This document shows, one piece after another, positions 27,639 to 51,396 of a stretch of 64,000 nt of DNA; position 1 is the stretch's first letter; every line of letters starts with the position of its first letter. The position numbers and the translations under genes are program-made. Origin of the DNA: an uncultured Acidimicrobiia bacterium (GTDB lineage Bacteria > Actinomycetota > Acidimicrobiia > Acidimicrobiales > AC-14); assembly GCA_963836205.1 (NCBI GenBank), contig CAWIIV010000007.1:250536-314535 (forward strand), given 5' to 3'. The notes beneath the pieces are model-generated. The model was given only the letters and a program-made list of their open reading frames with translations. It was not told the DNA's origin and did no database searches.

Positions 27639-27753
27639 TCAGGTGGAGTTTGGACGTTCGCCCACCCACCGTGGTTCCCTGACCACTGCTCGACGAGGAT
27701 ACCGGCACCCCAGACGGACCCAGGCGCCATGTGCTGCCAGACTTCCGGGCGCC

Positions 27754-30462
27754 ATGAGCCTCCAGACCGCGATCGAGCGTTCGGCCTCGCCGGCGGCGGT
27801 GGCGGTGGCGCTCGAACGGCTGTCCGACGCGGTGCCGGGGGTGCAGGCCCGCCTCGCCGGCAACCCCCGCCTGCGCGACGCCGTTTTCGCCGTCACCGCC
27901 GCCAGCCGGTCGCTCACCGAGCTCCTCATGTCGGAGCCGGCCGCCCTCGAGGTGCTCGCCGGCCTCGACGACCGGCCCGTCCGCCTCGACGGCGACGACC
28001 CGCCCGAGGCCGGGCTCCGCCGGTGGATGCGGCTCGAGCTCCTTCGGATCGCGGCACGCGACCTCACCGGCCTCGACGACCTGCCGGTGGTGGGCCAGGG
28101 CCTGGCCCGGCTGGCCGACGAGGTCCTCCAGGCGGCGGCGACCGCGGCCGGCGCCGATCCGGGGCTGGCCGTCATCGGGATGGGCAAGCTCGGCGGCTGC
28201 GAGCTCAACTACTCCAGCGACATCGACATCATGTTCGTGGGCGACCCCCACGTCCACGACCGCACCGCCCGGGCCATCCTCGACGTCGCCCGCACCTGCT
28301 ACCGGGTCGACGTCGACCTCCGCCCCGAGGGCCGCGACGGGCCCCTCGTGCGCACGCTCGAGTCCTTCGAGGCCTACTGGGAGCGGTGGGCGCACACCTG
28401 GGAGTTCCAGGCCCTGCTCAAGGCCCGGCCGGTGGCGGGCGACCCGGCCCTCGGAGCCGCCTTCCTCGAAGGGGCCCGGGCCCGGGTCTGGGAGCGCCCG
28501 TTCACCCTCGACGACCTGCGGGCGGTGCGGGCCATGAAGGCCCGTTCGGAGGAGATGCTGGCCAAGAAGGGCCTCACCGACCGGGAGGTGAAGCGGGGAC
28601 GGGGCGGCATCCGCGACATCGAGTTCTCGGTGCAGCTGCTCCAGCTCGTCCACGGCCGGGCCGACCCGGATCTGCGGTCGCCGACCACCCTCGACGCCCT
28701 GGCCGCCCTCGGCTCCACCGGCTACGTCGACCCGGCCGACGCCCGCGCCCTCGACGCCGCCTACCGCCTGCTGCGGACGGTCGAGCACCGGCTCCAGCTG
28801 GTCCACGAGCAGCAGGTCCACACCCTTCCCGCGCCCACCGACCTCGCCGGCCGCGACCGCCTGGCCCGGGTGATGGGCTACCGGGACACGGCCGAGGCCA
28901 CCGCCGGCGAGTTGCTCGACGGCTTCCTCCGCCGCCAGCAGGCCAACGTCCGGTCGATCCACCAGCACCTGTTCTTCCGCCCGCTGCTCGACGCCCTCAC
29001 CGCCAGCGGCGCCACCACCGTCCTCATGTCGGAGGAGGCGGTGGCCACCCGGCTGGAGGCGTTCGGGTTCACCGACGCCAAGCGCACCCGGTTGGCGCTG
29101 CAGGAGCTGACGAGGGGCCTGACCCGGTCGTCCCGCCTGATGCAGCAGATGTTGCCGTTGCTGCTCGGGTGGCTGTCGGAGTCGCCCGACCCCGACCTGG
29201 GACTGCTCGGGCTGCGGGTGCTCGCCGGCGGCCCGGCCCAGGCCACCGAGCTGGCCACCGCCTTCCGGGAGTCGCCCGAGGCCGCCCGCCGGCTGTGCAC
29301 CCTGCTCGGCACCAGCCGCCGCCTGAGCGAGACGCTCGAGCACCACCCCGACATGATCCCGGCCCTGGCCCAGGCCGACACCCTCGCCCGCCGTCCGGCG
29401 GAGGCGCTGCTGCTGGGGGCCTCGGCCGCCGTCGCCTGGCGCGACCATTTGGAGGACAGGCAGCGGGGCCTGCTCCGCTACAAGCGGCGGGAGGAGCTGC
29501 GGGTGGCGGCGGGCGACGTCCTCGAACTGGCGCCGCCGGACGAGGACCAGGTCGTCGTCACCGCCGGGCAGCTGACGGCGCTGGCCGAGGCCAGCCTGCA
29601 GGCGGCGCTGGAGGCCCTGCACCCGTCCGTGCCGTTCGGGGTGGTGGCCATGGGCCGCCTGGGCGGGGCCGAGCTGTCGTACGCCAGCGACCTCGACCTG
29701 CTCTTCGTCTACGACGGCCAGACGCCGGCCGACTTCGCCGCGGCCGAGAAGCTGGGGGAGGCGCTGGTCCGCTTCCTGGCCGGGACGACGCCTGCCACCC
29801 GCATCTACCCCGTCGATCTGGGCCTGCGCCCGGAGGGCAAGGACGGCCCCCTCGCCCGCAGCCTCGACGGCTATTCCTCCTACTACGGCCGGTGGTCGCA
29901 GACCTGGGAGCGCCAGGCCCTGGTGCGGGCCCGGTTCGTGGCCGGCGACGCCGACGTCGGGCGCCGGTTCATGGAGATCGTGGAGCCGCACGTGTGGTCC
30001 AGCCCCCTGGGCGAGTCCGAGATCCGGGAGATCCGCCGGGTCAAGGCCCGCATCGAGCGGGAGCGCATCCCCCACGGCGAGGACCCCCAGTTCCACCTCA
30101 AGCTGGGCCGGGGCTCGCTGTCGGACGTGGAGTTCACCGCCCAACTCCTGCAACTCCGACACCGGGTGCAGGCCACCGGCACCATGGACGCCCTGGTGCG
30201 GCTGGAGGAGGCGGGCGCCCTCGACCCCGACGACCGGGAGATCCTGGCCGACGCCTACCGCTTCTGCGAGCGGGCCCGCAACCGGTGGTTCCTGGTGAAG
30301 GGCGCCCCCGGCGACTCGCTGCCCACCAAGGCCGAGCAGATGGCGGCCCTCGCCCGCTCCCTGGGGATGACGGCCGCCGACCTGCGGGAGAACTACCGCC
30401 GCGTCACCCGCCGGTCGCGCAACGTGGTGGAGCGGGTGTTCTACGGCAAGGTCGACTCGTGA
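27754..30462 (+). CDS. glnE: Glutamine synthetase adenylyltransferase/deadenylylase
   Basis: Two NT domains (MGKLGGCELNYSSDID; MGRLGGAELSYASDLD), DLRPEG, WEFQALLKAR, GGIRDIEF. Confidence 0.95.
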   Translation: MSLQTAIERSASPAAVAVALERLSDAVPGVQARLAGNPRLRDAVFAVTAASRSLTELLMSEPAALEVLAGLDDRPVRLDGDDPPEAGLRRWMRLELLRIAARDLTGLDDLPVVGQGLARLADEVLQAAATAAGADPGLAVIGMGKLGGCELNYSSDIDIMFVGDPHVHDRTARAILDVARTCYRVDVDLRPEGRDGPLVRTLESFEAYWERWAHTWEFQALLKARPVAGDPALGAAFLEGARARVWERPFTLDDLRAVRAMKARSEEMLAKKGLTDREVKRGRGGIRDIEFSVQLLQLVHGRADPDLRSPTTLDALAALGSTGYVDPADARALDAAYRLLRTVEHRLQLVHEQQVHTLPAPTDLAGRDRLARVMGYRDTAEATAGELLDGFLRRQQANVRSIHQHLFFRPLLDALTASGATTVLMSEEAVATRLEAFGFTDAKRTRLALQELTRGLTRSSRLMQQMLPLLLGWLSESPDPDLGLLGLRVLAGGPAQATELATAFRESPEAARRLCTLLGTSRRLSETLEHHPDMIPALAQADTLARRPAEALLLGASAAVAWRDHLEDRQRGLLRYKRREELRVAAGDVLELAPPDEDQVVVTAGQLTALAEASLQAALEALHPSVPFGVVAMGRLGGAELSYASDLDLLFVYDGQTPADFAAAEKLGEALVRFLAGTTPATRIYPVDLGLRPEGKDGPLARSLDGYSSYYGRWSQTWERQALVRARFVAGDADVGRRFMEIVEPHVWSSPLGESEIREIRRVKARIERERIPHGEDPQFHLKLGRGSLSDVEFTAQLLQLRHRVQATGTMDALVRLEEAGALDPDDREILADAYRFCERARNRWFLVKGAPGDSLPTKAEQMAALARSLGMTAADLRENYRRVTRRSRNVVERVFYGKVDS

Positions 30463-30745: not shown

Positions 30746-31300
30746 TCAGGAGGCGGCGCGGGCCCGGCGGGTGACGGTGAGCAGGGCCCCGGCCACCACG
30801 ACGAGGGCGAGACCCTGGGCCAGCGCCGAACGACCCCCGCTGTTGGGGAGCCCGCTGAGGGGGACGGTGGCGGTGGTGGACACCCGGATCATGCTCGTAC
30901 TCGGACCCGGTCCCGCTCCCGCCCGGGTGGTCGACGTGGTCGGTCCCCCGGCCCGGGTGGTGCTGGTGCCGGCCGCGGCCCGGGTGGTGCTCGTGGTCCC
31001 GGCGACGGCGGCAGTGGTGCTCGGGGCCGCCGCCTGGGTGGTGCTGGTGGCGGCGACCGCGGTGGTCGTGGGGCCGCCTGACGTGGTGGTGGACGCGCCG
31101 GCCGTGGTGGTCGTGGTGGCTGTGATCCCGCCCGACGTGCCGCCCGCGGCCCGGGTGGTCGACGTGGCCGCGGGGGGAGCGGCGGTGGACGTGTCGTCAT
31201 CGTCGTCCTGGCGGTTGATGAGGGTGGCCACGGCCACGCCGAGCACGATCAGGACCACCAGCAGCAGGAAAATGGTCAGTCCCCGTCTCATCCGCACCAT
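30746..31300 (-). CDS. Thr/Ala-rich surface protein with LPxSG-type sorting signal
   Basis: N-terminal TM, mucin-like TTT stretches, C-terminal LPNSG plus hydrophobic segment and RRAR. Confidence 0.7.
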   Translation of the reverse strand: MVRMRRGLTIFLLLVVLIVLGVAVATLINRQDDDDDTSTAAPPAATSTTRAAGGTSGGITATTTTTAGASTTTSGGPTTTAVAATSTTQAAAPSTTAAVAGTTSTTRAAAGTSTTRAGGPTTSTTRAGAGPGPSTSMIRVSTTATVPLSGLPNSGGRSALAQGLALVVVAGALLTVTRRARAAS

Positions 31301-31398: not shown

Positions 31399-31773
31399 TC
31401 AGGCGGCGGCGATGGGCCTGCTGCGGATGCGGGTGAAGCGGCGGATGAAGGTGGCCATGTGCTGGTACACCTCGCCCAGCACTTCGGCCTCGGCGTCGAG
31501 CGTCTGCCGGCCCCGGGGAGTGATGCGGTAGACGCGGCGGTCGGGCCCGACGGCGCTGTCCTCCCAGCTGGAGGCGACCAGCCCGTCGTCCTCCATCATC
31601 CGCAGCACGCGGTAGAGGGCGCCCAGGTCGAAGCCCGTCGGCCCGACGGCGGACAGGCGGGCGAGCAGTTGGTAGCCGTGGGCCGGCGCCTCCGAGATCA
31701 GGAGCAGAGCGCACGCCTTCAGGTAGTTGCTGGGCAGTCCCGAGGGCAGGGCGTCCTGTTCGCGTCTGGCCAC
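31399..31773 (-). CDS. PadR-family transcriptional regulator
   Basis: LLLISEAPAHGYQL, LYRVLRMMEDDGLV.S.W, GPDRRVYRITPRG. GGAGGAGG RBS before GTG 31773. Confidence 0.88.
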   Translation of the reverse strand: MARREQDALPSGLPSNYLKACALLLISEAPAHGYQLLARLSAVGPTGFDLGALYRVLRMMEDDGLVASSWEDSAVGPDRRVYRITPRGRQTLDAEAEVLGEVYQHMATFIRRFTRIRSRPIAAA

Positions 31774-31979
31774 GCGGTACCTCCTCCGTCGGTCGTAATC
31801 GGACGAGGGCATGATCGCCCGGCCTCGTATCGGCGGCGCGACGGCGTCGTGAACGGCGGAAAAACCCTTCCTGTTGCCGACGGGGGGCGATGTCGGCGGT
31901 CCGGGCGCGCCTCGGGCCGGCCCGCTACCGTTCGGTGGCCGACCCCACGGTCGACCGAACTGGGAACTGGCGGCGTCAC

Positions 31980-33722
31980 ATGGGCGGAAACGAGGGGTTT
32001 CGGCAACCGGAGGCGGACGACCCCCTTTCGCCGTCCGAGCAGGTCGAGAAGGGTACGACCCGCTTCGCGGGCCGCCTGTGGGCCGTCGACCGGATGCTGG
32101 CCTGGCTCCGCGTCCCCGACACCCGGTTCTTCGTCCTGACGGGCGAGCCCGGCATCGGCAAGTCGGCCCTCGCCGCGTGGATGGTCGGGCACGGCCCCCT
32201 TCCTGGCGACGCCCTCGGGACCTCCGACCTGGCCGACATGCGCCACCGGTGGAGCGCGGTCCACTTCTGCCGGGCCAAGGCGGGCGGGACCCTCGATCCC
32301 AAGACGTTCGCAGCCTCGATGTCGAGGCAGCTCGCCACCCGCGACGAGGCCTTCGGCGAGCTGGCGCTGCACCACCTCGCACCCGAGGTCCGGATCACGC
32401 AGACGGTGGGCGAGAACCGGGGCCACGTCGTCGGGATCAGGGCGGAGCAGGTGATCGTGAACAGCCGCGACGCCGACGACGTCTACGACAAGGCGGTCCG
32501 GAAACCGCTGCGGGACCTGGCCCAGGCCCGGCCCGACCTGTTCCCGATGTTCTTCCTCGTCGACGGCCTGGACGAGGCCTGGGGTCGCGCCGAGCCGAAC
32601 ATCGTCACCCTCCTGGAGCGATCGGACGATCTCCCCGAGGGGGTCCACGTCCTCGTCACCACCCGCGACCTTCCGGTCGTCGTCGAGCGCATGGCCGACC
32701 GCACCCAGCTCGACCTCTCCGCGCCCGGATTCGGCGCCGACAACGACCGCGACGTGCGGGCCTACGTCGAGGAGCGGCTCGGCCACGACGGCCTGCGGGC
32801 CCAGGCGGCGGACCTGGCGAACCGGCAGGCGGTGGTCGACGAGCTGGTCGCCAGCGCCGGCGGCAACTTCCTGTTCGTGGAGTTCCTGCTCGACGACGCC
32901 GCCAGCCGCCCGGACGGGCTGGGCGACCTCGCCCGCACCCCCCGCGGGCTCTATCCCCTGTACCGCCAGTACCTCGACCGCCTGCTCCCGGCCGTGGCCC
33001 AGCCGGGCGGGGCCGATGCCTGGGCCCACACCTACCGCCCGTTGCTGGGCAGCCTCAGCGTGGCCACGCCCAGCGCCCCCGAGCCGGCCCTCCCCCGTTG
33101 GCTCACCTGGGGGATGGAGGACGTCGACCTGCGGCTCGGTGAGGTGCGGCAGCTCTGGGGGGAGAGTGGCGCCGCCGGCAGCCCCGACCACGGCTACCGC
33201 ATCTACCACCGCTCGCTGGCCGACTTCCTGGGCACGCGGGAGTACCCGGACGGGAAGGTCTCCACCAGGAACCGGTACTTCGCCGCGCCGGCGGTCCAGC
33301 ACCAGCGCATCGCCACGTATTACCTCTCGATCGGCACCGGAGCCGACGGCGACTGGGCGATGAGCGACAGGTACGGGCTCCGCCAGGTCGTTCCCCACCT
33401 GGGCGCCTGGCTCGACGGGGAGGACGAGCCCCGTCTCCAACGGGAAGTCGCCCGAACGCTCTACCAGGTCGTGCTCGACCCCGGCCTCAAGGAGGAGCAG
33501 GAGCGGCGGCTGGGTGGTGTCGGCGCCACGGTCGCGGCGTTCCGGATCGCCCTCGACACGACCTTGCGTCGGGACGACTTCGACGTGGCCGAGCGGCTCG
33601 TCACCACCCTCGCGTCCGACCTCGACGCCGAGCTGCGGGCCCTGGGCCACGAGTTCATCCTGCGCATCCAGGCGGTCGATCCGGGCCGCTTCGACGGCCT
33701 GGTCAAGAGCCTGCTGGCATGA
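31980..33722 (+). CDS. STAND (NACHT-like) P-loop NTPase without an N-terminal effector domain
   Basis: FAGRLW, Walker A GEPGIGKS, Walker B FFLVDGLDEA, VLVTTR, GGNFLF, PRGLYPLY, YHRSLADFL. Alternative start at 31890. Confidence 0.85.
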   Translation: MGGNEGFRQPEADDPLSPSEQVEKGTTRFAGRLWAVDRMLAWLRVPDTRFFVLTGEPGIGKSALAAWMVGHGPLPGDALGTSDLADMRHRWSAVHFCRAKAGGTLDPKTFAASMSRQLATRDEAFGELALHHLAPEVRITQTVGENRGHVVGIRAEQVIVNSRDADDVYDKAVRKPLRDLAQARPDLFPMFFLVDGLDEAWGRAEPNIVTLLERSDDLPEGVHVLVTTRDLPVVVERMADRTQLDLSAPGFGADNDRDVRAYVEERLGHDGLRAQAADLANRQAVVDELVASAGGNFLFVEFLLDDAASRPDGLGDLARTPRGLYPLYRQYLDRLLPAVAQPGGADAWAHTYRPLLGSLSVATPSAPEPALPRWLTWGMEDVDLRLGEVRQLWGESGAAGSPDHGYRIYHRSLADFLGTREYPDGKVSTRNRYFAAPAVQHQRIATYYLSIGTGADGDWAMSDRYGLRQVVPHLGAWLDGEDEPRLQREVARTLYQVVLDPGLKEEQERRLGGVGATVAAFRIALDTTLRRDDFDVAERLVTTLASDLDAELRALGHEFILRIQAVDPGRFDGLVKSLLA

Positions 33723-36168
33723 GGCCGCAGAGCTCGTCCGTCCCACTGGCCCGCCGCTGGCTGGTCCTCATGATTGTCGCGCTGGTCGTGCCCTGGCTCG
33801 GCCCGCAGGCAGCCGGCGCGGCGGATGTGAGCGTCTCCCCGACGAGCGGACCGCCCGGGACGACTGTGACCGTCGCGTTCGAGGGGGCGTTCTCGTTCTG
33901 CGCGGTGTACTTCGACGGCAGGCCGGTGGAGATCGTCATCGGTTGCGACTCGGCGACGGTGTCGTTCGCCGTCCGGGAGTCGGCCTCCGTCGGCGATCAC
34001 TCGATCCTCGCCCTCGCCGACGGGGCGCCCTCGGCGAACCCAACTGCGGCGGGCGGCACGGCGGAATCCGGCGGGCAACGGTCTAACTCGATCGAGCGGA
34101 CGTTCGAGTTCCGCGTCACGCCCGACGACGTGACGACCACGACCACCACGACCACCACGACGACGACGGTGCCGCCACCGATCACCTCGGCGCCACCGAC
34201 CACCGTGCCGGAGCCCGAGATCCTGCTGGTGGCAACGCCGGTCGTCTTCACCCAGACGGCGGTCCCGACGACCACCAGCACGTCGAGCACGTCGAGCACG
34301 ACGACCACGACGACAACGCCCACGACGACCACCAGGACGACGACCACCGTCGCCCGCCCCCGCACGTGTCCGCCCGGCCAGGCCGCGCTCACGTCCTTCG
34401 CCGTCGATCCCACCAACGGCCGACCCGGGGCCAGGGTCGCGGCGACCACGACGTGGGGCCCACCTGGTGCATTGCATCGACGTCCGGGACCTGGCCATAC
34501 AGTTCGACGGCAAGCCTGTCGCCGGCCGGCCGCCCCCGGTGGGCACCGCCGGGACCTTCGAGATGACAGTCCCCGACGACGCCCGCCCCGGGACCCGTCG
34601 CTTCTCGCTCGTGGATGCAGGCGACCCGTCCGTCGAGATCGGGTCCGTGTCCTTCGAGGTGGAGGGGGCTTCGGAACCGGAGCCGTTCCCCAGCGGCTGG
34701 ATCCTCGTCGCCCTGGCCGCGGCCGCCGTACTCGCGGTCGCCCTGATCGTGGGACGACGCGGTCGGTCGGACGCCCCAGCCCCGCCGAACCAGGAGTCGG
34801 CGGGTGGCGTGGCGGCCGGCGGCGACCAGGAGCGCTGGCGGACGGCCCTCAAGGCCGCGGCCTTCGTCGGCGGGTCGCAGGACGACGACGCCTTCGCTTT
34901 CGCCGCCGCGTCCAGCAACCCAGTCCTGCGCTCGACGGTCGTCTACGCCCTCGCATACCGGTGGCGGCACGACCGGGCCGCGGTCAACGGTGTGCTCGAT
35001 TCCCTCGCCGACCGGGTGGAGGGATCCGGGGTCGACCGCCGGGCCCGAGTCCTGGTCGACGCCGCCTTCACGATCTACGGCGCTCATCCCGAGGACCGAG
35101 CGTTGGCCTTCGAGGCGAGCGAGCTGTGCCGGAGGGTTCTCGGGGGTCGGCGCCGCCTGCCCCGGCGCCTGTGGCGAAAGCCGGCGGCCAACCTCTTCGG
35201 CCCGGACCTGGGCACGTTCTTCGACGCCGACGACAATCTGCGAGCCCGCTTCGACCGGGTGGTGCTCCTCGTCGATCCGTCGTCGGCGCTGGACTCGGAG
35301 ACGGTCGCCGACGATCTGGCCGCGCTGCTCGAGTCGCCCGCTTACCCGCACAACGCGCTGGCCGCCCTCGTCGTCGCGATCCACGCCGTCGACGACTTCG
35401 ACGCCACCGAGTCGCTCGTCCGCGACCTCCACCGGCGAGTCGACGCCCACGGCCGGCGCCAGCTCCTCCAGGCCTTCGCCGTCCTGCTCCCAGACACGCC
35501 CGGGGCCTGGCTGCCACTCGTCGAGCAGCTCACCCGCGACACCTTCCCGACCGCCGAACCCACGGGGGCCACCCTCGATCTGGCCCTGCTGCCCCTTGGG
35601 CTGGCCTACGCCAAGTCGACCACGACCACCGGCATGCCCATGGTCGACGCCCTCCTGGCCGAGGCGGTCGAGCGGGCGGACTGGGCCCTACGTGGCGCTG
35701 GTGGTTGAGGCCCTGGCCCCGATCGGGTTCTACGGGGCCGACCTGGTCTTCCGCTCCCTGCGCCCGGTGATGGGTGCCCTGCTCGGCGAGCCCGGGACCC
35801 GCCGGGCGCTGGCCTCGACTCTGGCTACCACCCGAACGTTCTGGTTCGACGAGGTCGACCTGTTCCTCCGGGAAACCGATGTCGGCGTCGACTTCTGGCG
35901 ACTGGTCGCGTCAGAGACGAGGCCCGAACGCATGGCGGCGCTGGTCGCTCGCATCGGCCTGCACAACAGCGCCGTCCACCACGCCATTGCTTCCCCGACG
36001 ATCCGGGAGCACCTGCTACAGGGCGGCTTCCGCGACCTGGCCTCGTCGTCGTCGCCCCGCCAATTCGCCGCCCGCTACACCCACCGCGTCCGCGGTCTCC
36101 TCCACGCCTCCGACTTCGAGCCCATCCGCTGGACCGAGCCACGCAACAACGCCGATGGTCCGAGCTGA
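33719..36168 (+). CDS. Single-pass membrane protein (signal, Ig-like x2, TM, about 470-aa helical cytoplasmic domain), with two +1 frameshifts (about 34472 and 35686)
   Basis: Joined from ORFs 33719-, 34467- and 34804-36168. Alignment with paralog 45868-48753 pins the first break (GA[t]CIDVR vs GTCTEVR). Removing 2 nt gives an 815-aa ORF. Confidence 0.75.
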
Positions 36169-36244
36169 TCGCGCCGGCAACCAGATTCTGTGCCTGCTCG
36201 GCCACCTCGATCATCTCCGCAAGCAGGACGAGCTCACGCCGCAT
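36166..36244 (-). pseudogene. 5' remnant of a HepT/DUF86 toxin gene
   Basis: MRRELVLLAEMIEVAEQAQNLVAG overlaps the MNT stop and resembles DUF86 N-termini. Similarity is lost where it meets the convergent gene end. Confidence 0.6.
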
Positions 36245-36533
36245 ACAGCAGCTGCGCCTCTGCGAGCACGGCATCCCGGATCAGGTCTTGCAACGCGACT
36301 CGGGAGACGAGGTCGACCCGACGGCCGAGGACGGCTTCGAGCTCCTCGGCGAGGGCCTCGACGTCCCAACCGAGCCGGGCGTCAGTCGCCAGGTCGTAGA
36401 GCAGGTCGACGTCGCTGTCGGGCGAGGCGTCGCCGCGGCCGACCGAGCCGAACACCTCGAGCCGCGCCACGCCGTAGCGTTCGCACACGGTTCGTAGGCG
36501 CTCGGAGTCGACCGCGAGCCCGGCGATGGTCAT
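36234..36533 (-). CDS. Minimal nucleotidyltransferase (MNT antitoxin)
   Basis: VFGSVGRGDASPDSDVDLL and LGRRVDLV motifs. Confidence 0.9.
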   Translation of the reverse strand: MTIAGLAVDSERLRTVCERYGVARLEVFGSVGRGDASPDSDVDLLYDLATDARLGWDVEALAEELEAVLGRRVDLVSRVALQDLIRDAVLAEAQLLYAA

Positions 36534-36645
36534 CGCTCAAGAGTATGGCGACCGTCGTGGCCGGCGCGGCCTCGGTCGGTGCGGTGGTGGACCGATGCCG
36601 GCGTGTGCAGCTCGTCCGGATAACCGCAGCTCAGCGCCTGCCGGC

Positions 36646-38070
36646 TCAGATGTCGTAATAGAGCATGAACTCCCACGGGTGGGGCCGTAGGCGGACCTCG
36701 TCGATCTCTCGCAGGCGTTTGTACGCGACCCACGTCTCGATGAGGTCGGAGGTGAAGACGCCGCCGGCGGTGAGGTAGTCGTGGTCGGCTTCCAAGGCCA
36801 ATAGCGCCTCGTCCAGCGACGCCGGCACCTGCGGGACGAGGGCCAATTCCTCGGGGGGGAGGTCGTAGAGGTCCTTGTCGACGGGGTCGGGTGGCTCGAT
36901 CCGGTTCTGCACCCCGTCCAACCCCGCCATCAACATGGCGGAGAAGGCGAGGTAGGGGTTGCACGACGGGTCCGGGCAGCGGAACTCCAACCGCTTGGCC
37001 TTCGGACTCTTCGAGTACAGCGGGATCCGCACCGCGGCCGACCGGTTCCGTTGGGAATACACCAGGTTGACGGGCGCCTCGTAGCCGGGAACGAGCCGTT
37101 TGTACGAGTTCGTCGTCGGCGCCGCGAACGCCAGGATCGACGGGGCATGGGCCAGCAGCCCGCCCACGTACCAACGAGCCATGTCGGACAGCCCGCCGTA
37201 GCCGGTCTCGGAGAAGAACAGCGGCTCACCCGCCTTCCACAGCGACTGGTGGCAGTGCATGCCCGACCCGTTGTCCTGAAACAGGGGCTTGGGCATGAAC
37301 GTCACCGACAGGTCGTGGGCCCAGGCCACGCACTTGGTGACGTACTTGTAGAGCATGAGCTTGTCGGCCATGCGCAGGAGGGTGTCGAAGCGCATGTCGA
37401 TCTCGGCCTGGCCGGCGGTGCCCACCTCGTGGTGTTGCACCTCCGTCTCGATTCCCACCCGCTCGAGCATGAGGATCATCTTCGAGCGCAGGTCCTGGAA
37501 GTGGTCCATCGGCGGGACCGGGAAGTAGCCCTCCTTGTACCGGGGCTTGAACCCGAGGTTGGGCTTCTCGTCGGCGCCCGAGTTCCAGATGCCCTCCACC
37601 GAGTCGACCGAGTACATCGCCGAGTGCTGGTCCTGGTGGAAGCGGACGTCGTTGAAGATGTAGAACTCCGCCTCCGGCCCGAAGTAGGCGGTGTCGGCCA
37701 GTCCGGTCGAGGTGAGGTAGTCCTCCGCCTTCTTGGCCACGAACCGGGGGTCGCGGGTGTAGGAGTCGCCGGTGACAGGGTCGCGCACGAAGCAGTTGAG
37801 GTTGAGGGTCTTGGCCTCCCGGAAGGGGTCGATCACGGCCGTGTTGGAGTCGGGGACGAGGATCATGTCCGACTCCTGGATCTCCTGGAACCCCCGGATC
37901 GACGATCCGTCGAAGCCGTAGCCCTCCTCGAAGCCGTCCTCCGTGAGCTGGTGGGCGGGCGTGGAGAAGTGCTGCATGAGGCCGGGCAGGTCGCAGAAGC
38001 GGAAGTCGACGATCTCCACGCCCTCGTCCTGCATGAGCCGCACCACGTCAGCCGGACTGCGTTCCTCCAC
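36646..38070 (-). CDS. glnA: Glutamine synthetase type I-beta (copy B)
   Basis: [40 protein letters not shown], adenylylation loop DKDLYDLP. Confidence 0.97.
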
Positions 38071-43581: not shown

Positions 43582-44919
43582 ATGGAACGTCAGCAGGACT
43601 ATGTCCTCCGGTCGGTGGAGGAGCGGGGCATCCGTTTCATCCGCCTGTGGTTCACCGACGTGCTCGGCCAGCTCAAGTCGATCGCCATCGTCCCCGGCGA
43701 GCTGGAGAACGCCTTCGAGGAGGGGATGACGTTCGACGGCTCGGCCATCGACGGCTTCAGCCGGGTGCAGGAGAGCGACATGCTCCTCCACCCCGACCCC
43801 AACACCTTCGAGCTGCTCCCTTGGCGGGGCGAGGACGCACCCGTCGCCCGGATGTTCTGCGACGTCACCAACCTCGACGGCTCACCCTTCGAGGGTGACC
43901 CCCGCAACGTCCTGCGGCGGGCGCTCGACCGGGCACGGAACCTGGGATTCTCGTTCTACGTCGGCCCCGACATGGAGTTCTTCTACTTCAAGGGCGTGGC
44001 CGACGGTCCGCCCCAGCCGGTGCCCATCGACTACGGCGGCTACTTCGACCTCACCACCGTCGACGTCGCCACCGACCTGCGCCGGCGCACGATCCTCGCC
44101 CTCGAGTCGATCGGCATCCCCGTCCGCTACAGCCACCACGAGGACGCCCCCGGCCAGCACGAGATCGACCTCCGCTACACCGACGCCCTGACCATGGCCG
44201 ACAACGTCATGACCTTCAAGCTGGTGGTGAAGGAGATCGCGCTCGAGCGGGGCGTGTACGCGTCGTTCATGCCCAAGCCCCTGCCCGGCGTCCAGGGATC
44301 GGGGATGCACACCCACATCTCCCTGTTCGAGGGCGACGTCAACGCCTTCAGCGACCCCGGCGACGAGACCCACCTGTCCAAGGTGGGCAAGGGCTTCGTG
44401 GCCGGGCTGCTCCACCACGCCCGGGAGATCACCGCCGTCACCAACCAGTGGGTGAACTCCTACAAGCGGCTGGTGGTGGGGTTCGAGGCGCCGGTGTACG
44501 TGGCCTGGGCCCGCAACAACCGCTCCGCCCTGGTGCGCATCCCGGGGGCGAAGAAGGGCAAGCAGTCGTCGACCCGCATCGAGTTCCGCTCCCCCGACCC
44601 CGCCTGCAACCCCTACCTCGCCTTCGCCGTCATCCTCGGCGCCGGCCTGCGGGGCATCGAGCACGGCTACGACCTGCCGACGGAGCTCACCGCCAACCTC
44701 TACGAGATGACCCCCGAGGAGCGCCTCGCCGAGGGGGTGGAGGCCCTCCCCGGCTCCCTGGAGGAGGCGGTGGCCTGCATGGCGAAGTCGGAGCTGCTAC
44801 CTGAGGTGCTGGGCGAGCATGTCTTCGAGTGGTTCATCCGCAACAAGCGGGTGGAGTGGGAGGCCTACAAGTCGCAGGTCACCCCGTTCGAGATCGACCG
44901 CTACCTGCCGATCCTCTAA
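43582..44919 (+). CDS. glnA2: Glutamine synthetase family protein, GlnA2-like
   Basis: FIRLWFTDVLGQLKS, FDGSAIDGF, HHEDAPGQHEID, GSGMHTH, NRSALVRIP, RIEFRSPDPACNPY. Confidence 0.92.
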   Translation: MERQQDYVLRSVEERGIRFIRLWFTDVLGQLKSIAIVPGELENAFEEGMTFDGSAIDGFSRVQESDMLLHPDPNTFELLPWRGEDAPVARMFCDVTNLDGSPFEGDPRNVLRRALDRARNLGFSFYVGPDMEFFYFKGVADGPPQPVPIDYGGYFDLTTVDVATDLRRRTILALESIGIPVRYSHHEDAPGQHEIDLRYTDALTMADNVMTFKLVVKEIALERGVYASFMPKPLPGVQGSGMHTHISLFEGDVNAFSDPGDETHLSKVGKGFVAGLLHHAREITAVTNQWVNSYKRLVVGFEAPVYVAWARNNRSALVRIPGAKKGKQSSTRIEFRSPDPACNPYLAFAVILGAGLRGIEHGYDLPTELTANLYEMTPEERLAEGVEALPGSLEEAVACMAKSELLPEVLGEHVFEWFIRNKRVEWEAYKSQVTPFEIDRYLPIL

Positions 44920-45867: not shown

Positions 45868-48753
45868 TCAGCTGTTCGACATGGCGCCCGAGGCTACCCG
45901 TCCCGCCACCCAGGCGGTGAGCTGCAGGAACCGCTCCCAGGGGAAGCCGGGGCCGGGGTCGAAGTCGCGGTTGGCGGCGATCCCGGCCTGGCCGTCGTGC
46001 CACTGTTCGACCGTGATGCGCCGCACGGCGATCCCGTGGCGCACGGCCCGTATCCCGGCCCACGTGGCCGCCCGCACGAGGAGGGCCTCCTCCCGGGCGG
46101 GGTCGGTGCCCCACGCCGACGGGTCGTAGGCGAGGGCCAGGTCGATGGCGGCCGAGCTGGAGCGGACGCCGTGGAGGGCGGTGGCCTCGTCCGGGAGGAG
46201 GTCGACGATGACGTCGGGGTCGACGACGGCGTGGGCCGCCTCCGGCTGGTCGACGGACGCCAGGTGAGCGGCGACGGCGTCGGCCGTGCCGCCGGGGAGC
46301 GTGTGGAGGACGACGGCCCGGATCCCGCCGTAACGGGTCGGGTAGTACCAGCCGTGCTTGCCGTTGGCCCGGAGGGTCGCGTGGGCGTTCTGGTGCTCGA
46401 GCAGGTAGTACGAGGGCTCGGCGCTGACCTGGGCGATGAGCTCGTCCGGCGTCGGGAGCGGCCGTCGGGGCCGGGGGAGTGAGGGAGCGGGAGCCCCATT
46501 GGCCGGCCGGGACGGTTCGAGGCCCTCACCCTCGGTCGACTCATGGGTCGGTACGGCCGCGCCAACGGCCGCCGCCGTCTCGACCGGCGCCACCTCGACA
46601 GGCAGCGGCGCCGAGTCCGGCGCCTCCCCGATCGGTGCCTCCGAGACCGACGATTCCGAGACCCGCCGTTCCGAGGACGGCAAAGGCTCAGCGACCGACT
46701 CCGGGACCGGCGACTCCGGGACCGTCGCGGCGTCGACCGGCATCGGCCGCGGCGCCCATACGGGGCGCTCCGCGTCCGGCGGCTCCGAAGTGGGCAACGC
46801 CGAGGCGACTGGCGACTCGGAGACCGTTCCCGCCTGGACGAGCGGCGCCCCCCAGACTGGCCGCGGCCCGATCGACGGCGCCTCCGGGATCGGCCGAGGC
46901 TCCCAGGCTGGTCGGTGCCCGACCGGCGGCGGCGCGTCCGGCGTCTCCGAGACCGGCGCGGGCGCGGCGACCGTCGCCTCCGGGACCGGCACCGGTTCGT
47001 CGTCCTCCGGTTTCGAGTCGGCGGTCTCGTCGGCCATGGCCGTGGCCGGCGGCGGATCGGTCAGGGTGACCATCCGGTGCCAGAGGAACGTCGTGTCGCC
47101 CGAGAGGAGGCCGAGGTCGCCGGCCTCGAACTCGACCCCGGTGACGAGGCGGGCGGGGATGGCGTGCTCCCGCATCTTGGCCTCGGCCCACCGGCCGGCG
47201 TGGCCGAACACGGCCTCGTCGACGGACGGTTCCTGGCCCAGTCCGGCCAGGAGCAGGACCAGGATCGCCTCGTCGTGCTCGGGCTGGTGAACGGCGACCA
47301 CGTCGTCGGGCAGGAGGTCGAGGGCGCCGTCGACGTCGACCAGCACGTGGGCCGACGCCGGCGTCTCACCCATCGCCAGCTCCGACGCCGCCGCCCCCGC
47401 GGTGTGGGCCTCGACGGTGTCGACCACGATGCCCCGGATCGGTTGGGTCCGACCGTCGCGGTACCAACCCCGCTTGCCGTTGGCCTGGCGGGGGGCGTGG
47501 GGATTCTGGCGTTCGAGGAGGTAGAACGACCCGTGGCGCCCGCCGGCCACCACGAGGGGGACGACCGGCATCGTGGGATGGTCCTCGACGAGGATCGCAG
47601 GCGCGGTCGGCACGTCGACGTCGGGGGATGCACTGCCGTCGGCGACGACGGGGACCTCGAGGGTGCCTCCCCACCCGCCCCCGTCGTCGCCGTCAAAGCC
47701 GTCGTCGGCCCAGCCGTCGTCGGTCGGCCGCCCCCGATCCGCCCTCCTCGCCCGCCGCCCTCGCCGGCGCCGCCGCCGCACCATCAGCAACACGAGCAGC
47801 AGCAACGCCACTCCCGCCGCCGCCAGTCCGGCGATGGGCAGGATCGACGCCTTGGCCTCTTCGACCCGGAAGGCGATGGTGGCCAGCTCGACCGACGGGT
47901 CGTCGTCGGCCACCAGGGCCAGGGTGTGGGGGCCCGCCTCGGCGTCCCTCGGGATGCTCATCTCGAAACTCCCGGAGGTGCCGGCGACGGGCGGCTCGCC
48001 CGGCACCGTCTTGCCGTCGAGGATCACCCGCAGGGTGCGGACCTCGGTGCACGTGCCCACCAGCCCGTAGGTGGTCGTGCCCGTGACCTTGGCCCCCGGC
48101 CGGCCCCGGAGCGGTGCGACGGCGAATCGCTTCAGCGCCACCTGGCGGGGCGGGCAGACGGCACCGATCCCCTGCCCCGTGCCGGTGGTGGAGGCTCCGG
48201 TCAGCACGCCGGCCACCGAGGTCGAGTTTGGTGGCCCGGTGGTCGTGGGCTGCGGGGTGGTCGAAGCAGTGGAGCCGGTCGTCGCGGTGCGGGCGACTGT
48301 CGTCGGCGCGCCCACCGCGCCCACGACGACGTTGTTCTCCGTGGCCGAGACGGGTGCGGAGCTGATCGGGGGCGTGGTCGGCGCCGGTGCGGTGGTGGTG
48401 GGCGTGGCCGTGACCCGGAAGGTGAAGCTCTGCGACGGCGCCGTGCCCTCGAGCACGATGCCTTCGGCCAGGATGGTGTGGTTGCCGGCGGCGGTGGGCG
48501 GCACCTCGAACACGAGGGTGGTGGCGTCCTGGCAGTCTCGCGCTCCCGCCACCGGTTCACCGTCGAAGAACACGACGCAGCCCGCTCCGAAGTCGGTGAG
48601 GGTGACGCTCACCGTCGTGCCCACGGGGCCGCTCTGCGGATCCACAGTCACCGTGTACGCGGCGGCAGGGCCCTGTCCGAGCCATGGGCCCGCGAGCAGG
48701 GCGAGAACCACCAACAACCAGCGTCGAGCAGGCGGGGCAGCCTGGCCGGTCAT
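45868..48753 (-). CDS. Single-pass membrane protein (signal, Ig-like x2, TM) with two cytoplasmic degenerate Amidase_2/PGRP-like domains
   Basis: Ectodomain is paralogous to 33719. TM followed by RRRRRRGRR. Repeated domain YLLE.QN.HA...NGK.GWY...IR.VV(D/H)T...AH..VD, the second ending [11 protein letters not shown]. Confidence 0.8.
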
Positions 48754-49538: not shown

Positions 49539-50201
49539 CTAACGGACAGAGAGCTCTACCTGGCAGGGGTCTCGGTCGGCGAGCGTTCCGAACCTTTCAA
49601 CGCTGGCGCCGCCGATCTGTTCCACGTATCCCTGGACGAGGCCCCGGTGCAGGTGGCAGACCACCTCGGGATGGGCCGCGGCCAGCTCGGCGAAGGGGCA
49701 GTGGGTGAAGGCGATGGTGGCCACCTCGTCGTCGGCGACCACCGCGGGGTCGAAGCCGAGGTCGGCCAACATGGTGGTGACGGCCTCGACGCACGCCTTG
49801 CGGGGGACACCGCCGTTGGCCTTGGCCATGGCCCGGCCCGCCTCCGCACCCACGAGGGCCACGTCGTCGGGTTCGAGCTCGGAAGCGGCGGCCAGGGGTG
49901 CGAGCATGCGGGCGAGGAGGGGGAAGGCGGGGGCCTCGAGGCCGAGCGAAGGCGCGTCGGGAGCGAGGGCGTAGCGGTGCTGGGGCCGGCCGACGCTGCC
50001 CCGGCCGTCGGCCTCCACGTGCAGCAGTCCGACGTCGCGCATGCGCTCCAGGTGGGGGCGGACGGTGTTGGGGTGCAGCCCGAGCGACTCGGCGATGTCG
50101 GCAGTGGTGCGGGGGGACCCGGCCCGGGCCAGCTCCAGGTAGATGGCGTACCGGGTGTTGTCGCCCAACGCCTTGAGGACGTCGAGCCGCGGGGTCTCCA
50201 T
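49539..50201 (-). CDS. ArsR/SufR-like HTH metalloregulator
   Basis: KALGDNTRYAIY, LHPNTVRPHL, GRPQHRY, C-terminal HCPF...VCHLHRG...C. Confidence 0.85.
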   Translation of the reverse strand: METPRLDVLKALGDNTRYAIYLELARAGSPRTTADIAESLGLHPNTVRPHLERMRDVGLLHVEADGRGSVGRPQHRYALAPDAPSLGLEAPAFPLLARMLAPLAAASELEPDDVALVGAEAGRAMAKANGGVPRKACVEAVTTMLADLGFDPAVVADDEVATIAFTHCPFAELAAAHPEVVCHLHRGLVQGYVEQIGGASVERFGTLADRDPCQVELSVR

Positions 50202-50206
50202 CGGGT

Positions 50207-50238
50207 TGGATATTACCGGGCCAGACCGGTAAAATCCA
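50207..50238. promoter_or_regulatory. 13-bp inverted repeat carrying back-to-back -10 elements
   Basis: TGGATATTACCGG-N6-CCGGTAAAATCCA (1 mismatch). TAAAAT lies 6 nt before the mrp ATG; minus-strand TAATAT lies 8 nt before the regulator ATG. Confidence 0.7.
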
Positions 50239-50241
50239 GAC

Positions 50242-51396
50242 ATGGCCGCTGCCCCCACTGAGGAAGACGTTCGGGGCACGCTCCGGGGCGTCGTCGACCC
50301 CGAGCTGGGGGCCAACATCGTCGACCTCGGCATGGTCAACGCCATCGACGTCGGCGACGACGGGTTCGTCCTGGTCACGGTGGCGCTGACGATCAGCGGC
50401 TGCCCGCTGCGGGTGCAGATCCGCGACGACGTGGAGTCCAAGGTGCGGGGCCTGCCCGGCGTCACCGGGGTGACGGTGAAGTTCGGCGAGATGGACCAAG
50501 CCCAACGGAGCGCGGTCATGCAGCGGGCCCGCCGCCACGCCGCCGACCACGCCCCCGAGACCGAGGTCCCGCTCACCACCCGCATCATCGCCATCGCCAG
50601 CGGCAAGGGGGGCGTGGGCAAGAGCAGCGTCACCGTCAACCTGGCGTCGGCCCTGGCCTTCCGGGGCTTCTCCGTGGGCGTGCTCGACGCCGACATCTGG
50701 GGCTTCTCCGTCCCCCGCATGCTGGGCCTCAGTGGACGGCTGGAAGGCACCGACCAGGGCCAGATCAGCCCGCTCGAAGTGCCGGTGGGCGCCGGTCGGA
50801 TCAAGGTGGTCAGCATGGGCTTCCTCGTCGACGACGAGGACATGGCCATCATGTGGCGGGGATTGATGCTGGCCAAGGCGCTGGAGGAGTTCCTGGTCAA
50901 GGTCGCCTGGGGTCCGATGGACTACCTGCTGGTCGACATGCCCCCGGGCACGGGCGACGTGCAGATGGCCCTCGGCCGGCTCCTGCCCCGGACGGAGATG
51001 GTGGTCGTCACCACGCCCGCCCTGGCCGCCCAGAAGGTGGCGGTCCGGGTGGCCGACATGGCCCGCCGCTCCTACCTCAAGGTGCTCGGCGTGATCGAGA
51101 ACATGAGCTCGTTCACGTGCGACCACGGCGAGACGTACCCGCTGTTCGGCGTCGGCGGCGGCGAGACCCTGGCCACCGACCTCGGCGTGCCCCTCCTGGG
51201 GCGGATCCCGCTGGAGCCCGAGGTCAGCCTGGCCAACGACGCCGGCAAGCCCCTCTCGGTGGCGGCACCGGCGAGCGCGGCCGGATCGGTGTTCGCCGCC
51301 ATCGCCGACCTAATCGCCGACGAGCTGCTCCCCCCCGTCGACATGGCCGGCTGCACCGCCCGCATGCTGGCTGCCGTCGAACAGGCCCTGGGCTAA
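50242..51396 (+). CDS. mrp: Mrp/ApbC/NBP35 Fe-S carrier ATPase
   Basis: DPELGANIVDLG (DUF59), GCP, SGKGGVGKS, DADIWGFS, DMPPGTGD, ENMS. Confidence 0.95.
   Translation: MAAAPTEEDVRGTLRGVVDPELGANIVDLGMVNAIDVGDDGFVLVTVALTISGCPLRVQIRDDVESKVRGLPGVTGVTVKFGEMDQAQRSAVMQRARRHAADHAPETEVPLTTRIIAIASGKGGVGKSSVTVNLASALAFRGFSVGVLDADIWGFSVPRMLGLSGRLEGTDQGQISPLEVPVGAGRIKVVSMGFLVDDEDMAIMWRGLMLAKALEEFLVKVAWGPMDYLLVDMPPGTGDVQMALGRLLPRTEMVVVTTPALAAQKVAVRVADMARRSYLKVLGVIENMSSFTCDHGETYPLFGVGGGETLATDLGVPLLGRIPLEPEVSLANDAGKPLSVAAPASAAGSVFAAIADLIADELLPPVDMAGCTARMLAAVEQALG

Follow-up and report, generated by a model that had tools for sequence, protein, structure and literature searches.

In the usual description, proteins of the STAND class (signal transduction ATPases with numerous domains), and with them the NOD-like receptors (NLRs), consist of a single chain and do their sensing within the cell. 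How, then, should one read a locus at which an NTPase gene of this kind, with no effector, runs across an overlapping stop and start codon into the gene for a putative membrane receptor? The locus (positions 31980-36168, + strand) lies in a stretch of 64,000 nucleotides (the window; 72% G+C) on contig 7 of the 4.05-Mb genome of an uncultured Acidimicrobiia bacterium (25 contigs, 88.6% complete; G000 in what follows, with G001-G005 denoting genomes of relatives). The pair is probably a two-gene split NACHT-type, NLR-like STAND, consisting of an NTPase switch and of a solenoid placed behind a signal peptide, outer domains and a transmembrane (TM) helix. The original prediction, made from the letters of the DNA, had proposed that the receptor owes its cytoplasmic domain to the C-terminus of a STAND protein, detached and set behind an outer module and TM segment, and this is now strongly supported: the domain is colinear with a single-chain paralog, its homologs lie at protein C-termini, the split forms make up one clade, and an interface between the halves is predicted.

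The NTPase gene

The first gene (31980-33722, +) specifies what appears to be an effector-less NACHT-type STAND NTPase of 580 residues, comprising a P-loop domain, a winged helix and a helical arm of ~150 residues that ends in ...DGLVKSLLA. (The open reading frame spans 31890-33722; the start of the homologs corresponds to the ATG at 31980.) The NACHT-like motifs that had been read in it, from Walker A (GEPGIGKS) through the winged-helix YHRSLADFL, are present together with Walker B (LVDGLDEA) and TTR, in columns that are invariant across 16 aligned relatives. The Pfam model NPHP3_N, which is of NACHT type, matches well above its cut-off (E 4.7e-11, 43.6 bits against 24.8), beginning ~37 residues past the start codon; Pfam NACHT itself (PF05729) reaches 19.8 bits, under its cut-off of 26.7, and is recorded, as is AAA_lid_TANC1, for the relatives P0178-P0180. 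NACHT proteins are defined, in the available text of 10.1101/2022.07.19.500537, by the signature D[GAS]hDE; residues 195-199 of the NTPase read D-G-L-D-E, with D195, G196 and D198 invariant and E199 nearly so in the alignment of 16.

Hydropathy reveals no hydrophobic segment in the NTPase, and the Pfam scan lists no TPR, WD or LRR family on it, just as had been anticipated. What this amounts to is a chain that has the P-loop Walker A/B and helical/winged-helix modules of a STAND protein and lacks, in its 580 residues, the C-terminal repeat or sensor domain, which is found in the same chain in the single-chain paralog described below. A short conserved N-terminal peptide (DDPxSP..., then RFAGR; 31980-32060 in the window) precedes the P-loop domain in the TM-type subclade, being found also in P0173, P0175-P0177 and P0003.

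The overlap and the receptor gene

The stop codon of the NTPase gene (33720-33722) overlaps the receptor ATG (33719) in the tetranucleotide ATGA (33719-33722, +), an arrangement that the original prediction had pointed out and that the coordinates of the open reading frames confirm. The receptor gene (33719-36168) is readable only across two +1 frame breaks, in open frames that extend over 33719-~34459, ~34461-35684 and 35686-36168; the G+C content of third codon positions (GC3) is 0.85-0.95 in each of the three successive frames.

The topology of the receptor (an outer part, a single TM helix and an inner solenoid) is predicted from hydropathy and from conserved cysteines. The gene begins with a signal-peptide-like N-terminus by hydropathy, ARRWLVLMIVALVVPWLGPQAAGAA (33719-33823, +), whose signal-like segment is residues 14-35 and recurs in P0073, in P0003 and in a paralog elsewhere in the window (45868-48753). 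Outer domain 1 (33824-34123, +) and outer domain 2 (34349-34682, +; cut by the first frame break) each have two conserved cysteines, and all four of these cysteines are conserved in 4/4 copies compared. The two domains are joined by a Thr/Pro-rich linker (34124-34348, +; 39 Thr in the 82 residues counted). The Thr-rich stretch 34055-34418 draws many unrelated contigs in searches. The putative TM helix, GWILVALAAAAVLAVALIV (34695-34751, +; Kyte-Doolittle mean 2.75 over 19 residues), is followed by RRGR. The cytoplasmic part is a predicted HEAT/ARM-like α-solenoid that occupies the sensor position of a STAND C-terminus (34836-36165, +; cut by the second frame break); the helical region of about 470 residues that had been postulated was found, at ~443 residues counted from WRTALKAAA or ~470 with the linker included.

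Colinearity with a single-chain paralog

The same genome encodes, on contig 24, a paralog of 1096 residues in which both halves lie in one chain. By BLASTP, NTPase residues 1-569 align with paralog residues 28-616 (39% identity, E 5e-103), the second receptor piece with 638-890 (33%, E 2e-19) and the third with 951-1095 (34%, E 2e-20). NTPase and cytoplasmic domain are colinear with the paralog, the cut falling after paralog ...LRLLA. This is the outcome that had been put forward as a check of the split: the cytoplasmic domain matches the C-termini of single-chain NACHT proteins, in line with the end of the NTPase. An NTPase search across 41 genomes finds matches in 8 (G000 included); those in relatives of the same genus are at most 48% identical and, where full-length, 37-43% identical, in frames of 1081-1189 residues that are nearly all single-chain. 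No ortholog of the split pair was found by this search in the 40 other genomes.

The single-chain paralog stands in a row of its own (G000 contig 24, L011:2687-9255, -) with a UbiA-like prenyltransferase, a CHAT protease and Ku. The UbiA-like gene follows the STAND gene in 4/4 genomes tested (G000, G002, G003 and G005; loci L011, L012, L014 and L013, respectively), and CHAT protease and Ku come next in 2/2 tested (G000, G002). The STAND paralog gene and the UbiA-like gene overlap where the former ends, and one database protein (P0004) joins both.

The C-terminal domain family

Searched in the 'longer' mode with the window's cytoplasmic piece, the database returns long proteins only (19/19 matches), and 16 of the 19 carry NTPase and/or effector Pfam families (TIR, kinase, trypsin-like, CHAT). 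An exhaustive phmmer search with the C-terminal domain (C-domain) of the paralog yields 203 representatives at E <=1e-3 among 1.84 billion proteins; in nearly all of the 150 listed of these 203 the match reaches the protein C-terminus. No Pfam or NCBIfam family covers the domain. Its AlphaFold2 model in the paralog (pLDDT, the predicted local distance difference test score, 92.4) is an all-helical solenoid of ~30 helices. Foldseek places the AP-3 β subunit, importin-α and designed ARM proteins nearest (E 9e-4 to 1e-2, TM-scores, or template-modelling scores, 0.16-0.28), and VIA gives Z of at most 8.1 (SF3b, PP2A-type, TOG) with none standing out, so that the modelled resemblance to HEAT/ARM solenoids is generic only.

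The split lineage

Stand-alone NTPases like that of the window are found elsewhere: they account for 9/25 NTPase matches (the window's included), are 552-582 residues long, 44-100% identical at 96-100% coverage, and all end in ...LL followed by A, V, G, P or S (P0176 being two residues longer). In three loci of a lower-GC metagenome organism (L032-L034, 88-100% identical to one another), the TGA of a gene for a 576-577-residue NTPase overlaps the GTG of a gene for a bare C-domain of 467 residues, and this GTGA overlap lies at the same position in the protein as the window's ATGA; the split point is identical. NTPase identity between the window, its own paralog and L032-L034 is 39-45%; for the C-domain it is 38-39% globally and 33-34% in local BLASTP alignments. 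Stand-alone C-domain proteins beginning at the cut are represented by P0027, P0028, P0040, P0046 and P0031.

The architecture of the window's receptor is likewise not confined to it. P0073 is an unbroken protein of 827 residues with signal, two outer domains, TM segment and C-domain arranged as in the window, and in P0003 a neighbouring NTPase and receptor have been called as one 1430-residue protein, whose receptor part is in a single frame at both of the window's break sites. The gene pair, whose conservation had been proposed as a check, recurs in these split pairs, L032-L034 on the one hand and P0003, with the same architecture as the window, on the other. P0173 is the closest NTPase to the window's (76% identity); its longest contig and that of P0073 both measure 9051 bases, and the two proteins occupy matching positions in their respective trees.

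Trees were built with the 24 single chains whose match begins at query positions 1-6, together with the genome's own paralog and its G002 ortholog; other listed phmmer matches were left out, and the trees are read without an inferred root. The NTPase tree unites its 10 split rows in a single clade (99 by the Shimodaira-Hasegawa-like approximate likelihood ratio test) nested among 26 single chains, with the L032-type rows basal within it; the C-domain tree does the same for its 9 split rows (97). Window, P0003 and P0073, the three rows with a TM segment, are a clade in turn (98), with P0031, which has no TM segment in its called sequence, as sister. Sequence comparison documents the homology and colinear order of the halves, the overlapping ATGA and the descent of the split forms within one clade. 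Fission rather than fusion is the preferred reading of the direction of change, since everything outside the split clade is single-chain. A single chain would have come first, been cut at ...LLA into genes whose stop and start codons overlap, and only then gained the outer/TM module; that fission preceded the membrane tether may be read from L032-L034, which hold an NTPase gene and a bare C-domain gene.

Could the split be spurious, an error of assembly having interrupted a single-chain gene where NTPase and receptor meet? The assembly does contain frame errors, and P0003 is called as one protein of 1430 residues. On the other hand, the end residue is shared by eight other NTPases, each called independently (one of them runs two residues on), the TGA/GTG overlap is kept in three metagenome loci at 88-100% mutual identity, and stand-alone C-domain proteins (P0027, P0028, P0040) begin at the split point; all of these records would need one common error. 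A single chain would also be topologically senseless, because a signal peptide and an outer module lie between the halves. An artefact at the junction is already contradicted by these records and is very improbable.

The L032-type pair has its own neighbours. A double-length UbiA-like gene (630 residues; L032:11113-13005) comes next, followed by a phage-tail-sheath-like gene (L033:13461-14678). On the upstream side are genes for a helix-turn-helix (HTH)-TPR protein and a glycosyltransferase. That two distant lineages both have UbiA-like neighbours suggests that the effector-less branch may already have been membrane-acting.

The outer and transmembrane module

A second protein in the window carries the same outer/TM module. 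This carrier (45868-48753, -; 961 residues), encoded 12 kb away, has the same signal, two Cys-pair domains and TM segment (46-64% identity in pieces), followed by two Amidase_2 stretches (E 5.3e-8) where the receptor has its solenoid. Because the module is thus found on an Amidase_2 protein too, it is portable, and the receptor is best read, from the sequences, as a stand-alone C-domain gene that acquired a portable outer/TM module; the carrier likely belongs to the module's donor family. The Amidase_2 stretches, of AmpD/PGRP type, are parted by a long low-complexity linker, and would be cytoplasmic by the positive-inside rule. Orthologs of the carrier in G002 and G004 stand beside the same HTH gene (~49539-50300, -, in the window).

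The Ig-like character that the original prediction had given the ectodomain finds no confirmation. The outer domains match no Pfam family; the best profile match in the Protein Data Bank (PDB) is to an unrelated capsid protein (E 0.28), and Atlas feature scores are at most 0.86. Scans of the collections confirmed no relatives of the receptor in species genomes or metagenome contigs. In a stricter first look with P0073, 5/401 genomes of the order match, and the matches are to the C-domain alone or to the outer module alone.

Predicted association of the two halves and points on the other side

In the AlphaFold2 model of the single-chain paralog (pLDDT 86, predicted template-modelling score 0.72) helices 572-582 and 587-600 are joined by a four-residue loop, and it is there that the cut falls. 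Foldseek relates this model to Avs3, Apaf-1, CED-4, SAMD9, NLRPs and MalT (E 2.6e-6 to 2e-4). A complex prediction on three chains with an alignment apiece (NTPase residues 30-580 and the C-domain in two unaltered pieces) scores an ipSAE of 0.78 (0.80, 0.78 and 0.77 in separate runs; 0.01 for the best of three controls), a mark reached in calibration by 58/80 solved complexes and 2/110 mismatched pairs. At least 92% of contacts recur between runs, and the partner pLDDT is 79 or more. Confident contacts are made by NTPase residues 542-579 and C-domain residues 2-34, which flank the cut: the proposed check by complex prediction places the interface exactly at the split (0.78 against 0.01). The model supports binding of the NTPase to the C-domain.

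Several considerations weigh against reading the pair as a working split STAND, or limit how far that reading extends. The complex score of 0.78 is to be expected for the halves of a split gene, the alignments held single-chain homologs, and a job of three chains with their own alignments is unlike those of the calibration. Adjacency of the P0173 and P0073 genes, which would add a further TM-type pair, may be surmised from equal longest contigs and congruent trees only. A PADLOC-DB 2.0.0 scan of five proteins matches no model, the best score being that of mad8 on the NTPase (E 0.01, 13.4 bits), with nothing for the receptor pieces and PadR. No effector is found in or beside the NTPase/receptor pair; the window contains none of the six CHAT matches that the genome has. 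At a threshold of E <=1e-10 the C-domain is detected in 1/401 sampled genomes of the phylum, G000 itself, a rarity that limits generalisation. To these must be added the condition of the receptor gene.

Frame breaks and the state of this copy

The two breaks were located from the frames, from GC3 and by comparison with unbroken orthologs. Each amounts to one extra base, the first in a GGGGCCC run (34455-34461, +) and the second in a GGGCCC run (35683-35688, +). At the first site a single frame gives W-G-x-x-G-T-C in P0003, P0073 and the paralogs; at the second P0003 reads ...EDWPLVARVV... in one frame. Programmed frameshifting was considered and is ruled out, P0003, P0073 and the paralogs being single-frame at both sites.

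Whether this copy of the receptor is alive is near even. It is only a little short of an even chance that family and split are real and that the receptor gene of the window is a pseudogene, the NTPase gene alone being intact. Two breaks fall within 2.4 kb, and glnE, glnA, the NTPase gene and the 3.3-kb paralog are unbroken; the receptor misses stretches of 15, 8 and 3 residues that P0003 has; and its branch in the C-domain tree is the longest in its clade (0.55 vs 0.30 and 0.18). The window's C-domain is also the most diverged from both outgroups (39.4% and 37.7% identity, other clade members having 42-48% and 40-43%), and the window's NTPase, unlike its C-domain, is not more diverged, whether judged by identities or by branch lengths.

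A living gene with assembly errors is favored, on the other hand, by the nature of the breaks, both of which are single extra bases in G/C runs, and by GC3, which is undiminished in all three receptor frames. True breaks exist in housekeeping genes of the same assembly (type I fatty acid synthase and pyruvate dehydrogenase E1; G000 C9:45625 and C20:169170), glnE is broken in the assemblies of 2/5 relatives' genomes (G001, G003), and P0003 likewise has an apparent break. The breaks in housekeeping genes and in glnE suggest indel errors in these assemblies. (Our frame-switch scan, from which the housekeeping cases come, lists 164 same-strand candidates, of which 5 sampled comprised 2 true breaks, 1 false one at a normal gene boundary and 2 unclear cases; it is crude, having caught only one of the two receptor breaks.) Candidate frame switches cluster at C7:242179-245979, C15:249582-256739 and C20:74508-84105.

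Public reads are silent on the reality of the breaks, since no listed read piece spans either of them (the nearest begin at 34473 and 35684). Small shares of the stretch (0.06-0.09) occur in four listed runs, none of RNA. Three of them, from soil, contribute few pieces with no or very few differences from the window. The fourth, a groundwater run (X4), contains a relative that is mostly 90-95% alike over 34473-36069 and has an in-frame GTT insertion behind 34733; among 39 tallied differences from this relative (79 more are untallied) third positions dominate only in the outer part, and no inference is drawn from them.

The variable island and PadR

The pair lies between conserved flanks. On the left are glnE (27643-30462, +), a gene for a Thr/Ala-rich membrane protein (30746-31300, -) and a PadR gene (31399-31740, -; Pfam E 1.1e-18), all three kept in G002, G004 and G005 at 71-79% DNA identity; on the right is glnA (36646-38070, -). 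DNA similarity to G002, G004 and G005 ends at 31857-31889 and restarts at 36618-36646 in the two relatives whose sequence reaches glnA. Because similarity breaks off at both edges, the NTPase/receptor pair and an MntA-like nucleotidyltransferase gene (36234-36533, -; NTP_transf_2 E 7.3e-12) lie in a variable island, whose left edge is at 31870-31890, where synteny with relatives stops, and whose right edge is at 36618-36646, where it restarts at glnA; PadR belongs to the conserved flank. The interval from PadR to glnA differs in each genome of the genus examined (~3.2 kb in G004, ~9 kb in G005).

This setting speaks to the suggestion, made in the original prediction, that the divergent PadR gene may control the operon, a suggestion that does not hold up: PadR is kept beside glnE without the NTPase/receptor pair in 3/3 relatives examined (G002, G004, G005), and the edge of the island falls between PadR and the NTPase gene. 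A broader form of the idea would make the NTPase a transcription-linked switch acting with the PadR regulator. Some bacterial STANDs, MalT for example, are transcription regulators, and MalT is among the fold matches of the paralog model; PadR and NTPase genes are divergent and share an intergenic region of roughly 240 bp. However, PadR and its co-directional membrane protein gene are conserved beside glnE in all three pair-less relatives, synteny ends between PadR and the NTPase gene, and no DNA-binding family of Pfam scores above threshold in NTPase or receptor. A switch of this kind is highly unlikely here.

The MntA-like gene has lower G+C and no recognisable HepT partner; a HepT remnant suspected after it (36100-36274, -) was dropped for want of Pfam support. 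A short frame after the MntA-like gene runs into the receptor 3' end. A second glutamine-synthetase-like gene (445 residues; 43582-44919, +) lies a few kb from glnA.

A proposed mechanism

The homology of the pair to single-chain STANDs is solid at the level of sequence; how the two proteins would work is inferred. NTPase and receptor would be co-produced from the overlapping genes, gene 1 providing the switch (P-loop, winged helix and first helical repeats) and gene 2 the remaining solenoid. The last helices of the NTPase (542-579) would stack on the first solenoid repeats, so that the layout of the single chain is restored against the inner side of the membrane, and a cue would free the NTPase for nucleotide-dependent oligomerisation, as in other STANDs. 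Most likely the solenoid would still be the ligand-binding part, with the outer/TM module positioning or clustering it at the envelope. A role in conflict or immunity is likeliest, by family association only, because relatives carry TIR, kinase, trypsin-like or CHAT domains or adjoin UbiA-like and CHAT genes.

It is possible, if doubtful, that signaling instead runs from the outside in, with the outer domains sensing an extracellular or envelope ligand (a phage particle, a wall fragment) and clustering of the receptor triggering NTPase oligomerisation. The topology is receptor-like, with its four conserved cysteines, and the outer module is kept in 3/3 TM-type copies (63-68% identity between window and P0073). 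STANDs are activated by clustering and oligomerisation, with which activation through receptor clustering would be in keeping. Sensing within the membrane or in the periplasm is proposed for some TM-bearing NACHT proteins in the available text of 10.1101/2022.07.19.500537. Against this stands the solenoid, usually the ligand-binding part, which is retained in full and conserved in the receptor; moreover, the same outer module occurs on an unrelated Amidase_2 protein, so that a generic envelope anchor fits equally well.

Relation to known systems

The nearest relatives of the split pair are the single-chain paralog of its own genome and the L032-type pair. The paralog differs in being one chain, followed by UbiA-like and CHAT genes and without an outer/TM module; the L032 type differs in its bare 467-residue C-domain gene, followed by the 630-residue UbiA-like gene, again without an outer/TM module.

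Apaf-1, CED-4 and the animal NLRPs share with the pair the STAND fold and a repeat domain placed after the nucleotide-binding oligomerisation domain (NOD), and their activation is by oligomerisation; they are single chains with WD40 or LRR in place of HEAT-like repeats, with CARD or PYD effectors and with no membrane tether. Avs3 (PDB 8dgc) is the best structural match of the paralog (Foldseek E 2.6e-6) and has the same logic of an NTPase with a C-terminal sensor. TM-scores are nevertheless 0.16-0.28 at 10-11% identity, PADLOC gives no Avs match, and Avs sensors are cytoplasmic and unanchored.

Plant cell-surface receptors that pair with intracellular NLRs, and Toll-like receptors, combine an outer recognition module with a single TM segment and an inner oligomerising platform, and the comparison with the pair is by analogy only: no homology is shown for the outer and TM parts, and the inner part of the window's receptor is the sensor half of an NLR-like protein.

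Bacterial NACHT proteins resemble the pair in their NACHT-type NTPase with D[GAS]hDE Walker B, in the winged helix, in a C-terminus of HEAT class (HEAT being listed among 'antigen receptor-type' C-terminal repeats) and in the TM segments of some members, and those described in the available text of 10.1101/2022.07.19.500537 are single chains with effector, NACHT and sensor, the TM class having several TM regions, to which sensing of signals in the membrane or periplasm is ascribed. N-terminal effectors such as TIR or proteases occur also in relatives of the pair. The pair differs in having two overlapping genes, an effector-less NTPase and a single-pass sensor half whose outer module is large. 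For related conflict systems, HEAT among other superstructure-forming repeats, as well as TM segments, are reported in the accessible part of PMC7159879, and 'split proteins' are mentioned only in the methods in the available text of 10.64898/2026.01.04.697583. A literature search, with supplements outside its scope, found no description of a two-gene STAND with a single-pass surface sensor half; among the literature matches listed, 'membrane-tethered' leads only to a review of synthetic receptors and to no STAND or phage-defence paper.

What the family makes visible is a natural series, from a single chain, to overlapping genes cut in an inter-helix loop, to a sensor half mounted on a surface-exposed module. 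It indicates that NOD and sensor, made as separate proteins, can function or at any rate be maintained by selection, and offers a ready-made system for control of a NOD by its sensor domain in trans. The comparison also defines a rare, unnamed C-terminal solenoid domain common to TIR-, kinase-, protease- and CHAT-bearing STANDs. The pair is a candidate link between an NLR-like switch and events at the envelope or outside the cell. A bacterial 'transmembrane NLR', in which events at the surface (phage adsorption, wall damage) are relayed by receptor clustering to an inner NLR-like ATPase, is an unlikely form of this idea: if true, it would join surface sensing and NLR-type oligomerisation in one complex of two proteins.

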